The notes beneath the pieces are model-generated. The model did not search any database. It was not told where the DNA came from and saw only the letters and a list, made by a program, of their open reading frames with translations. Made by a program: the position numbers and the translations under genes. Of a stretch of DNA of 64,000 nt, positions 46,345 through 55,432 are shown in pieces. The stretch spans positions 1,056,001 to 1,120,000 of the forward strand of contig OZ242010.1 of the NCBI GenBank assembly GCA_965204745.1. The letters run 5' to 3'. How positions within the stretch are numbered: the stretch's first letter is position 1; each line of letters begins with the position of its first letter. Origin of the DNA: Candidatus Latescibacterota bacterium. GTDB taxonomy: Bacteria > Latescibacterota > UBA2968.

Positions 46345-46380
46345 GAGCCGTGTGTAGGGATACAAGAGGGCAAACAGCAG

Positions 46381-46409
46381 AAGGCGCGGAATTTATCCGC
46401 GCCTTTTTT
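46381..46409. terminator. Intrinsic terminator
   Basis: AAGGCGCGGA-ATTTA-TCCGCGCCTTTTTT. Confidence 0.8.
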
Positions 46410-46540
46410 TGTTCAACCAGCGGTTGGCGGTCAGCCGATTCTGTCGGGCATGCGACTGAATATTCGCGCCCGTGAACTGCTATCGCAGGTGTATCCCGAC
46501 CATGCCCTTTGTGGATCACATCTTGTAGCTTCAAGGAGCA

Positions 46541-52944: not shown

Positions 52945-53565
52945 ATGGTCGATCTTTTTATTAAGGGCGGAAACTTTATGTATCCGCTGTTGGTGATGTT
53001 GTTTTTTGGCATCGTGGTGATTGCCGAGCGTTTTTACACCTTGTTTAAGGCGCATATCAATGCCAAAGAATTTATGGTGGAACTTCAGGATGTCCTCAAG
53101 CAGGACGGGCCGGAAGGTGCGGCTGAACTGTGTTCCAATACGCGCGGCCCGGTCGCCACGGTGTTGCACGCGGGGCTGTTGCGGTTGGATCGCGGCATCG
53201 AACACGTGGAAAAGTCGATTGAGGAATCCGGCGCGATAGAGATGGCATTTCTCGAGCGCGGGCTCGTGTGGCTGTCAACGGTTGCAAATCTGGCGCCTCT
53301 GGTCGGTTTTTTGGGCACTGTGTCGGGGATGATCCGCGCCTTTAACGATATTGCCGCCGCAGGCGATGTCGATCCCAGCGTCGTGGCCGGCGGTATTTCC
53401 GAAGCCCTGATTACAACGGCTTCGGGCTTGGTGGTCGCGATTCCGGTGCAGGCCGCGTACAACTTCTTCCTGTCGAAAATCGACAAGATCATTATCGACC
53501 TCCAAGAGAGTTCCAATCAGTTTGTCGATGACCTGATCCAGTTGGGTTACGGCAAGGAGGACTAA
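52945..53565 (+). CDS. exbB: MotA/TolQ/ExbB proton channel
   Basis: APLVGFLGTVSGMI.AF, GISEALITTA.GL. Confidence 0.9.
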   Translation: MVDLFIKGGNFMYPLLVMLFFGIVVIAERFYTLFKAHINAKEFMVELQDVLKQDGPEGAAELCSNTRGPVATVLHAGLLRLDRGIEHVEKSIEESGAIEMAFLERGLVWLSTVANLAPLVGFLGTVSGMIRAFNDIAAAGDVDPSVVAGGISEALITTASGLVVAIPVQAAYNFFLSKIDKIIIDLQESSNQFVDDLIQLGYGKED

Positions 53566-53568
53566 ACC

Positions 53569-53973
53569 ATGGCCCTTCAGAGACGCGAAAAATCTTCCCC
53601 TGAAATCCCCACTGGGTCTATGGCGGATATCGTGTTTTTGTTGCTCGTGTTCTTTCTCGTGACCACCACGATGAACCAAGACAAGGGCATCGGCATGCAC
53701 TTGCCGCCGCCGGGCGAGCAAAAGCAGATCCAGAAGAAGAACATTTGCAACATCTGGGTCAATGCCAATGGGGAGATTCTCATCAATCTGGAACAAAGCG
53801 TACCGCTGAATCAGCTTCGGGCGGATATCGAGCAGCGATTGGTGCAAAACGATAAGTTGATCATCTCATTAAAGGCCGACGAAGAAACGCCCTACGAGCA
53901 ATTCATCGACGTGCTTGACGAGATCAAGTTGTCCGGCGCAGATAAAATTTCGCTCGCCTCGCCCAGTGAGTGA
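53569..53973 (+). CDS. exbD: ExbD/TolR family protein 1
   Basis: SMADIVFLLLVFFLVTT, LKAD..TPY. Confidence 0.88.
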   Translation: MALQRREKSSPEIPTGSMADIVFLLLVFFLVTTTMNQDKGIGMHLPPPGEQKQIQKKNICNIWVNANGEILINLEQSVPLNQLRADIEQRLVQNDKLIISLKADEETPYEQFIDVLDEIKLSGADKISLASPSE

Positions 53974-54373
53974 GTTCGGGGGCGGTGTCTTGTAGGTGAT
54001 TTGTTGATTATTGTTGATTGTTGTTGCAGTTTGCAGTATCCAAATCCTGTTGTTGGCAAAAAGTCCTGACCATGTAAAACCCGAGGGTATAGCAGTCACT
54101 GTCACACGTCGACCCAGTACGAGGAATGTAGTAAGCGGGCAGTGTAAGGGTCTTTCTGGTAAGCAGTAAGCAGTTGTTTTTAAGCGTCTTCTCAACCGTT
54201 CTTTGAAGAAGTTGAGAAAGACTTTGGGGGTTCCACCCATTCTTGTATCCCGATAGGCTTGGCAACAATTTGAAACCAAGAACCAGCAGGGGGGAGTAAC
54301 GAGAATGCACTGGTTGAACCATTATTGGTTATCTGATAGTCAATAATGGTCAACAGAAAAGGAACAGGTTGTT
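53974..54373 (+). ncRNA. Candidate structured RNA of unknown family
   Basis: Lower GC, no credible ORF; several long stems with G-U pairs on the + strand (53992-54050, 54186-54222, 54238-54307, 54313-54354). Confidence 0.45.
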
Positions 54374-54781
54374 ATGAATTTTAAAAAAAAAGGCAGTGTC
54401 GCACAGAGCATCCCCACCGGGTCGATGGCCGACATTACGTTTTTGTTGCTCATCTTTTTTATGGTGTCCACGGTTTTTGTTCGGTTCCGCGTGTCCGGCA
54501 TCATCATGCCCAGGGCCGAGAAAATCGAGGAGCTCAAAAAACGCCGTCACATCAACTATTTGTGGGTTTCTGCGGACCGCAAGATCTTCATCGACGACAA
54601 GCTGGCAACTATCGATCAGGTGGCGGGGATCTTCTATGACCGCCGCGTCAAAGACCCCCGCATGGTCGTGTCGCTCAAATGCGACTACCGCGCACCTTAT
54701 GGATTGATCAGCAGTGTGATGGAGGAATTGCGAAAAGCCGATGCCCTGCGGATCAACTTTGCGACCAACCGAGAGGGGTAA
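54374..54781 (+). CDS. exbD: ExbD/TolR family protein 2
   Basis: SMADITFLLLIFFMVST, LKCD..APY. Confidence 0.88.
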   Translation: MNFKKKGSVAQSIPTGSMADITFLLLIFFMVSTVFVRFRVSGIIMPRAEKIEELKKRRHINYLWVSADRKIFIDDKLATIDQVAGIFYDRRVKDPRMVVSLKCDYRAPYGLISSVMEELRKADALRINFATNREG

Positions 54782-54784
54782 GCC

Positions 54785-55432
54785 ATGGCGATGATTCGAG
54801 GAAAAGCACCCGAAGCCGATTTGCGCCGCCGCTACAACAAGGTTTTTGGAATTTGCACGGCGATCACGTTTATCCTGCACACGGCTGTGGCCGTGATTTT
54901 TCCGACCTTTGAGGCGTCTGCGAGCAATCGCCAGAAGAAGCAACTCATCATTGAAAATGTGGACATTCCGGAAACGCGGCAGATCAAACGCCCGCCGCCG
55001 CCGCCCAGGCCCGCTGTGCCCATTGAAACCGAGAGCGACGACGTGCCCGACGATGTGACTATCGAAAGCACGGATCTCGATTTCGACGATGCCCTGGTCG
55101 ATTTGCCACCGCCACCGCCGCCGGGTTCCGAGGAAGAGGAGGAGGAAATCCTCGAGTTTTACATGGTCGAGCAAAAGCCGGAACTCGTGCATTCCGTCGC
55201 TCCCGCCTATCCGGAAATCGCCCGCAAAGCCGGGTTGACGGGCAAGGTGTTTTTGAAGTTCTTGGTCGATAAGACCGGTCGGGTCAGCAACGTGAGCGTG
55301 CTTAGGGGCCAAGAGATTTTCCGGCAAGCCGCGATCGATGCCATTTTGCAATTCAAGTTCAAGGCCGCGCAACAAAATGACAAGCCGGTTTCCGTTTGGA
55401 TGACGCAGCCGATTTCCTTCCGGCTGAATTGA
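54785..55432 (+). CDS. tonB: TonB energy transducer
   Basis: N-terminal TM, Pro-rich linker, YPEIARKAGLTGKV TonB C-domain. Confidence 0.88.
   Translation: MAMIRGKAPEADLRRRYNKVFGICTAITFILHTAVAVIFPTFEASASNRQKKQLIIENVDIPETRQIKRPPPPPRPAVPIETESDDVPDDVTIESTDLDFDDALVDLPPPPPPGSEEEEEEILEFYMVEQKPELVHSVAPAYPEIARKAGLTGKVFLKFLVDKTGRVSNVSVLRGQEIFRQAAIDAILQFKFKAAQQNDKPVSVWMTQPISFRLN

Follow-up and report, generated by a model that had tools for sequence, protein, structure and literature searches.

Results

The spacer between exbD1 and exbD2

The window analysed here is a stretch of 64,000 nucleotides (nt) from a Candidatus Latescibacterota bacterium, and our subject is the spacer that separates two exbD genes in one of its operons, which runs TPR gene, exbB, exbD1, exbD2, tonB, TPR gene. 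This spacer measures 400 nt (53974-54373) versus 3 nt for each of the other two gaps of the operon, a disparity that an initial annotation of the sequence had pointed out and that the coordinates of the open reading frames (ORFs) bear out. The genes concerned are:

52945-53565, + strand: exbB (ORF; Pfam MotA_ExbB)
53569-53973, + strand: exbD1, the upstream exbD gene of the operon (ORF; Pfam ExbD, E 1.5e-28)
54374-54781, + strand: exbD2, the downstream gene (ORF; Pfam ExbD, E 1.9e-18; same start codon in 15/15 congeners)
54785-55432, + strand: tonB (ORF; Pfam TonB_C)

The initial annotation had taken the spacer for a highly structured insert of low G+C content that is rich in G and U on the + strand and has no credible ORF. 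Its composition is as described, with a G+C content of 0.40-0.47 versus 0.51-0.56 in the flanks and a positive GC skew. The lack of a credible ORF also holds: the four spacer ORFs tested have no Pfam match, and an alignment with a second genomic copy of the element (see below) contains 9 indel columns and 48 substitutions, which split 16/21/11 by codon position and thus lack codon periodicity. The label “highly structured” does not fit the spacer as a whole, since its folding energy is no better than that of dinucleotide shuffles (z = -0.55 for the + strand and -0.90 for the - strand). When the proposed stems were folded singly, those at 54313-54354 (z -4.83), 53992-54050 (z -3.36) and 54186-54222 (z -2.42) stood out, while those at 54238-54307 (z -1.25) and 54097-54144 (z +0.47) were unremarkable in energy. 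An Rfam (15) scan returned four matches at E<=10, the best with 16.6 bits versus a gathering score of 52, and so assigns the spacer to no Rfam family. A consensus scan of the insert revealed neither promoter-like nor terminator-like sites.

Insertion directly behind a Shine-Dalgarno sequence

The spacer is a ~386-nt insertion that is polymorphic in natural populations. In all 15 genomes of the same genus that were searched with ExbD2, the exbD1 stop codon is followed by 15 nt with an AGGAGG-type Shine-Dalgarno sequence and then by the exbD2 ATG, with the AGGAGG standing 5 nt ahead of this start codon. At the order level, the exbD1-exbD2 spacer is likewise short and the insert absent at 8/8 loci with the same operon. 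Furthermore, we compared region 53600-54800 with the contigs of four public metagenome runs (X1, X2, X9 and X11) from four studies. A contig of 2442 nt from run X11 fuses base 53980 to base 54366 and omits exactly 385 nt; it differs from the window at 2-3 letters in ~800 nt of flank and represents the empty allele of a >99%-identical strain. Contigs of X1, X2 and X9 cross the left junction; for the right junction this holds for contigs of X2 and X9. In addition, loose contig ends in the metagenome runs place the ends of the element beside other flanks, of which several on the left are purine-rich and GGAGG-like and several on the right run into an ATG. The runs that contain the sequence are mostly sponge metagenomes.

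At the right junction of the window copy, as at that of the second copy, we found a GG and no target-site duplication. Compared with the empty allele, the left flank lacks one A, and the left boundary is thus good to ~3 nt. The flank, the insert and its left and central parts are as follows:

53974-53982, + strand: left flank, a remnant of the original exbD2 Shine-Dalgarno sequence and probable transposon-adjacent motif (TAM) (congeners' AGGAGG; X11 join)
53983-54368, + strand: inserted element with one GG core dinucleotide, 386 nt (X11 contig, second-copy block, congeners)
53986-54030, + strand: left end, with TGTTGAT direct motifs at 54002-54008 and 54012-54018 (direct repeat D3) (identity to insertion sequence copies F and H and to family f2, see below)
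54031-54182, + strand: central segment, kept only in the second copy (copy alignment; no similarity to insertion sequences, TnpA or TnpB)

A second copy and resident IS607-family relatives

A second copy of the element is present in the same genome (G000:C1:2785248-2785629) with 85% identity over 391 nt. Flanked by two unrelated ORFs whose orientation it shares, it stops 7 nt short of the downstream ATG. The block of homology between the copies has the same limits as the insert defined by X11. In genomes G016 and G018 the site of the second copy is empty, and what the occupied site has in addition is the element and a single GG; in G014 the site is uninterrupted but differs in sequence. The statement of the initial annotation that the spacer is unrelated to the repeats of the window is thus correct within the window and fails genome-wide, where there are a second full copy and other elements with common ends.

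These other elements are insertion sequence (IS) copies of the IS607 family. Eight resident elements of ~1.2-1.8 kb carry at their 3' ends a version of the final ~64 nt of the spacer, and all of them match its right end over 63-66 nt with 74-81% identity. Their transposase is recognised by NF033518 (IS607; 170 bits versus a cut-off of 110) as well as by the Pfam domains Resolvase and MerR, and their TnpB by NF040570 (103 bits versus a cut-off of 100). In total, the genome carries six such tnpA genes, 3/6 without internal stop, and eight tnpB genes of this clade. The left end of the spacer element matches IS copies F and H over 22-25 nt with 86-88% identity, and a three-copy family of 345 nt, here called f2, over 36 nt with 89% identity. 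Of the 24 TGTTGAY sites in the window, three fall within the element, two as direct copies at its left end and one inverted at its right end. The TGTTGAT motifs of the left end are probably TnpA binding sites. The best inverted match between the two ends of the element is 16 nt at 81%, and there is no long terminal inverted repeat.

Between its ends the element does not resemble these transposons. Searches with tblastn detected no remnants of TnpA or TnpB inside it (E>=0.49), and blastn against the interiors of the resident IS copies gave matches at the ends only, leaving an interior of ~280 nt that is unrelated to them. The element is therefore no simple deletion derivative of a resident IS copy. 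Because it encodes no TnpA (there is no family-supported ORF), it is filed as a non-autonomous derivative rather than as an IS. Outside this genome, phage and plasmid collections yielded no match to the element, and the other 167 of the 168 phylum genomes searched yielded a single match of only 30 nt.

Several further observations concern the relatives of the element. The f2 family comprises three 98% identical, protein-less copies (G000:C1:3848533-3848877, 3055904-3056247 and 5434327-5434671; L042-L044) with a left end resembling that of the window element and a Shine-Dalgarno-like right tail that ends in CGG. A spacer of a large CRISPR array with 37-nt repeats (~1459-1472 kb), located at G000:C1:1461125-1461151, matches the last 27 nt of f2 and then diverges; it looks as if it had been acquired from an f2 copy at another insertion site. 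A second, different TnpB family is present in six copies (G000:C1:3902331, 4230186, 5320074, 1802889, 91735 and 4479972; 238-264 bits to NF040570). IS copies A and C have homologous DNA beyond their right ends (G000:C1:3120987 onward and 2875031 downward); this DNA contains a small ORF whose start lies 8 nt past the end. Two explanations apply, a joint duplication of the element with its flank or a passenger that moves with the element. Upstream of IS copy A lies a ~200-nt repeat (G000:C1:3117488-3117900) that is found at more than 60 other places with 90-96% identity and is unrelated to the exbD element. A solitary tail resembling the right end, followed by an ATG 7 nt later, was detected at G000:C1:609070-609098 (- strand), where it is preceded by other repeat families and not by an IS607 body. 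Moreover, the TnpB of IS copy H (L038, G000:C1:1988303-1989427) carries a G in place of the E of the conserved PTFET stretch, which is E in the other nine aligned sequences and which we take to be a RuvC catalytic residue; this copy may be inactive.

A guide-RNA-type scaffold at the right end

In IS605 and IS607 transposons, the available parts of published accounts describe an omega-RNA with three stem-loops in a row, in which a nexus stem-loop is pseudoknotted to the 3' end of the scaffold and ..UCGG directly precedes the guide. The guide itself is the flank of the right end, as far as described in the accessible part of 10.1101/2023.11.20.567912. To compare the element with such RNAs we used a covariance model, R1. 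Its source sequences were the terminal 124-134 nt of each of the eight resident IS copies, a region that comprises the 3' end of tnpB and the right end. Its structure was drawn by hand and consists of hairpin S1, a long-range helix that links the loop of the small hairpin after S1 to the 3' tail, and hairpins S3 and S4. R1 matches the window at 54183-54368 with 64.4 bits (E 4.6e-14), and this match ends at 54368, the same boundary that the empty allele and the second copy define. The second copy scores 47.6 bits, the tnpB-linked right ends of congeners 53-65 bits (10/10 loci), and tnpB loci of cyanobacteria, Caldilineaceae and others 26-69 bits (73/73); each of these matches covers model positions 1-124. 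Loci of the same TnpB clade include records of uncultured Latescibacteria. The reading of the spacer as a sense-strand RNA in the initial annotation agrees with the model, which gives 62-64 bits on the + strand versus 6.8 bits on the - strand. Its parts are:

54186-54222, + strand: hairpin S1, 5' of the nexus (z -2.42; model helix 1; changes between the two copies)
54223-54239, + strand: nexus-like hairpin with stem GGG/CCC, whose loop 54230-54234 pairs with 54361-54365 (R1 alignment)
54239-54305, + strand: hairpin S3, arms 54239-54246 and 54298-54305, with a 42-nt inserted inner hairpin (R1 alignment)
54309-54356, + strand: hairpin S4, the right-end hairpin, with the inverted TGTTGAC (z -4.83; R1 33.1 bits alone)
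54357-54368, + strand: scaffold 3' tail and right terminus, purine-rich, Shine-Dalgarno-like, ending in AGG, with the pseudoknot partner 54361-54365
54369-54388, + strand: guide-equivalent flank, the first ~20 nt past the right end, overlapping the exbD2 start codon (assigned by the omega-RNA rule)

The paired positions of the model are maintained through sequence change. In an alignment of 20 sequences, 95.8% of the cells are paired versus 35-45% with slid partners, and 27 of 38 pairs change on both sides; the observed value was attained by 0/500 shuffles. The corresponding paired fractions for 68 distinct sequences from other phyla are 93.1% and 37-50%. Since the alignments (A6 and A8) were fitted to the structure of the model, these counts lean towards it. 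The loop-tail helix is 91.6% paired, with two of its five pairs changed on both sides, and reads GAUAC/GUAUC in the resident IS copies, GAUC/GAUC in three congeners and GUUCC/GGAAC in the element. Between the two copies of the element, which differ by 15%, four base pairs of S1 are doubly changed and none is broken, and the inner stem of S3 contains one compensatory pair. No invariant stretches between the copies are longer than the tail and the nexus block, a run of 27 unchanged nt that includes the nexus. S3 occupies the same position as S3 of the IS copies and has a different sequence; S4 is common to all eight IS copies and shows compensatory changes.

The contribution of the individual parts to the score is uneven. 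Applied to 54296-54400 only, R1 yields 33.1 bits for S4 alone, so that the tail, the loop-tail helix, the nexus, S3 and S1 together account for ~30 bits. A sub-model restricted to S1, the nexus and S3 (R2) scores 8.5 bits (E 2.6), ranks fourth in the window and is not significant; the case for homology of the 5' hairpins is thus made by the full-model alignment, the short nexus motif and the compensated pairs. Taken together, the sequence comparisons indicate that the right part of the element is probably homologous to an omega-RNA region.

Other candidates were discarded. Family f2 was considered as a second guide-RNA carrier and has no R1 match (best 8.9 bits). A pairing of the segment before S1 with the guide region was as good in only 1 in 170 shuffles for the window copy and had a p of 0.49 in the second copy, and we attribute it to runs of A and T. 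A scan of metagenome contigs with a 20-mer of the nexus gave 0 matches, and the 20 matches to a 19-mer of the tail are due to chance, as 0/20 match R1. Within the window, both RNA models weakly match a G+C-rich hairpin followed by a U run at 46379-46480 on the + strand (16.4 and 14.4 bits), which looks like an ordinary intrinsic terminator and not like a relative of the element.

Landing sites upstream of start codons

The empty sites that we could reconstruct have a common context. At exbD2, at the second copy and at IS copy F, insertion occurred directly 3' of (G)GAGG and 5-7 nt before a start codon. IS copy F (G000:C1:4364007-4365782; L035, L049) is a full-length element of ~1.78 kb with tnpA and tnpB that lies between rplM and rpsI, 7 nt before the TTG start codon of rpsI. 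Its site is empty in 20/20 congeners, where the rplM-rpsI spacer contains an uninterrupted GAGGAGG followed by 7 nt. The right junction of copy F fits the GG pattern, and the dinucleotide at its left junction is not a clean GG.

Among the 13 copies in this genome (eight IS copies, two of the window type and three f2), ten have a start codon (of an ORF of at least 55 amino acids) 6-9 nt past their terminal ..CAG or ..CGG. Random GG sites pass this loose start-codon test in 9.7% of 200,000 draws (binomial P ~1.6e-8), a probability to be read with the homologous right flanks of IS copies A and C in mind, owing to which the insertion events are not all independent. In congeners, a start codon follows 4-11 nt past 8/10 tnpB-linked right ends, and 6/6 alignable left flanks end in a purine-rich ..RGG, from which we infer the putative TAM. 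At exbD2, the AGG with which the element ends takes the place of the final three bases of the displaced Shine-Dalgarno sequence, at the same 5-nt distance from the ATG as in the empty allele.

We rejected proximity to a Shine-Dalgarno sequence as a general trait of the TnpB clade: of 66 distinct flanks from cyanobacteria, Caldilineaceae and others, only 17 reach a start codon within 0-15 nt. In these other phyla the tail reads AAAAAGUAUCGG and not the AGG-containing forms of this genus. As judged from its search results, a full-text literature search returned nothing on targeting of ribosome-binding sites by IS607 or TnpB, and no description of an IS607-type counterpart of the PATEs, the protein-less elements discussed below.

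Discussion

Our comparison of the exbD1-exbD2 spacer with related genomes and metagenomes, with its second copy and with resident transposons leads to an explanation that differs from those first considered. The spacer is very probably a non-autonomous, protein-less derivative, ~386 nt long, of the resident IS607-family transposons with a guide-RNA-type scaffold at its right end. That it is a mobile mini-element derived from IS607 is almost certain, whereas a functional guide RNA used in trans is a putative role, to which we give a little less than an even chance. The element is a new variant, while both its kind of mobile element and the omega-RNA class are already known.

The initial annotation had offered an undescribed large non-coding RNA, a ribozyme or intron-like element, or a cis-regulator of ExbD2/TonB stoichiometry. 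A host RNA that sets the expression of ExbD2 and TonB would suit a sense-strand insert within an operon that has local hairpins, lacks a terminator and carries its right-end hairpin just upstream of a new ribosome-binding site containing the pseudoknot partner 54361-54365. Given this position, an incidental effect on translation is plausible. However, the insert is missing from 15/15 congeners, from 8/8 order-level loci with the same operon, from the >99%-identical strain of run X11 and from the other 167 of 168 phylum genomes searched, it is polymorphic, and its second copy precedes an unrelated gene; a host regulatory RNA is thus very improbable. Still less credible is a ribozyme, be it a self-splicing intron, an IStron-like element or some other kind. 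Fusions of IS607 and IS605 elements with group I introns (IStrons) do exist, according to the accessible part of 10.1101/2023.11.20.567912, and the insert is about the right size for a small ribozyme. Against this, no intron or ribozyme family was found at E<=10 in Rfam 15, splicing would be unnecessary for an insert that lies between genes and not in a reading frame, and the right half is explained by an omega-RNA-type scaffold. In place of both proposals we find ends common to IS607-family transposons and an RNA-like part of the omega-RNA scaffold class. The initial annotation had named a match to a decayed mobile element as grounds for rejecting its own reading; the element is indeed mobile, although not decayed.

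The rival that deserves most attention grants the mobile element and disputes the RNA: the right part of an IS607-derived mini-element could be a DNA-binding platform for TnpA, or an omega-RNA relic, with no working guide. The inverted motif of the TnpA type in the right-end hairpin speaks for this view, as do the non-significant score of sub-model R2, the interior unrelated to resident elements and family f2, which has similar ends yet no R1 match. On the other hand, pairing in the loop-tail helix, S3 and S1 has been kept through two-sided changes that DNA binding by a recombinase does not need, and the nexus block and the tail have remained invariant while the copies diverged by 15%. We therefore consider a platform or relic unlikely, although by no means negligible.

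Some observations weigh against the explanation that we prefer, namely an IS607-derived mini-element with a guide-RNA-type scaffold. The folding energy of the whole spacer does not exceed that of shuffles, R2 is not significant, and the pair counts were obtained from alignments fitted to the model. Moreover, the element contains no promoter-like site, its left flank lacks one A of the empty allele, the unrelated ~280-nt interior sets it apart from simple deletion derivatives, and its cognate TnpB may not be encoded in this genome.

The comparison with known systems places the element close to the IS607 family. The available parts of published descriptions (PMC6188088; 10.1101/2023.11.20.567912) give IS607 elements GG at the termini and the target, no target duplication, no terminal inverted repeats and short subterminal repeats. 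As far as these descriptions go, IS607, IS1535 and the IS607/IStron elements of C. botulinum are similar to our element in their GG ends and target, the lack of a target-site duplication, subterminal repeats without long inverted repeats, mobilisation by a serine-recombinase TnpA and a TnpB guide RNA overlapping the right end (both predicted here). In contrast to these, the window copy is free of protein genes, and ~280 nt of its interior are unrelated sequence. Furthermore, the target in this genus is not a bare (G)GG or TGGG but a Shine-Dalgarno sequence 5-7 nt before a start codon, for which the right end supplies a replacement. Likeness to the published omega-RNAs (also termed reRNAs), to the extent that these are described in the parts available, lies in a scaffold at the right end that stops at the transposon boundary, in a nexus loop that pairs with the scaffold 3' end and is followed by two hairpins, and in the terminal ..CAGG, which may be compared with ..UCGG. 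The scaffold of the element differs from them in that no tnpB reading frame overlaps it, in the extra 42-nt hairpin inside S3 and in the loop-tail pairing, which is a variant of its own.

A functional parallel is provided by the PATEs, which the accessible part of PMC10055086 describes as protein-less derivatives of IS200/IS605 that often encode omega-RNAs used in trans. Like them, on that description, the element is a protein-less mini-element that keeps both ends and the guide-RNA region and would depend on TnpA and TnpB supplied from elsewhere. However, PATEs depend on a Y1 (HUH) transposase, subterminal palindromes and single-strand transposition, whereas the partners here are serine-recombinase IS607 elements. 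We therefore do not count the element among the PATEs, since its ends match serine-recombinase elements, even though it would work like one. An IStron is likewise a TnpB transposon that is phenotypically silent in a transcription unit, and in both cases maturation of the guide RNA could conceivably conflict with downstream expression. Here, however, there is no intron, and silence would be due to the place of insertion, between ribosome-binding site and start codon, and to the new site that the element brings along.

These features suggest how the element could be maintained. A resident serine-recombinase TnpA would move it in trans by a crossover at GG. As no terminator-like or promoter-like site was seen in the insert, the element would be co-transcribed with exbB-exbD1-exbD2-tonB, and its purine-rich tail ending in AGG would replace the displaced Shine-Dalgarno sequence, so that exbD2 and tonB stay translated. 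The right part might then act as an omega-RNA whose guide consists of the first ~16-20 nt from 54369, that is, the exbD2 start region. In the empty allele, the letters after GGGAGG equal those of the guide-equivalent flank, and an X11-type empty allele (GGGAGG followed by the same letters) would thus be the expected target of TnpB. By cutting this allele, a resident TnpB could retain the element in the population.

From the landing sites we tentatively propose, with our doubts still somewhat outweighing our confidence, that a lineage of IS607/TnpB transposons in this genus has come to use the Shine-Dalgarno sequence as its target and probably as its TAM, with the scaffold's own 3' tail taking over as ribosome-binding site. 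This tail is also the pairing partner of the nexus loop, so that guide-RNA folding would then compete with translation of the gene downstream.

Overall, our analysis removes a false lead, as the exbD spacer represents neither a new operon RNA nor a ribozyme. It adds a natural example of a protein-less IS607-type element with a guide-RNA-type scaffold, an arrangement described so far, in the parts of the literature available to us, for IS605-type PATEs. The occupied/empty polymorphism at exbD2 would serve as a ready-made pair of TAM and target for tests of trans-acting homing, and a TnpB with a GGAGG-like TAM might serve tool builders. Precise insertion between a ribosome-binding site and its start codon, together with the delivery of a new site, is a possible route to harmless TnpB transposons and an alternative to IStron self-splicing. 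If Shine-Dalgarno targeting is true, such transposons would colonise operons silently, even rplM-rpsI, and borrow the transcription of the host, and the exbD element would be a protein-less case among them, a guide-RNA gene that subsists by hitch-hiking alone.

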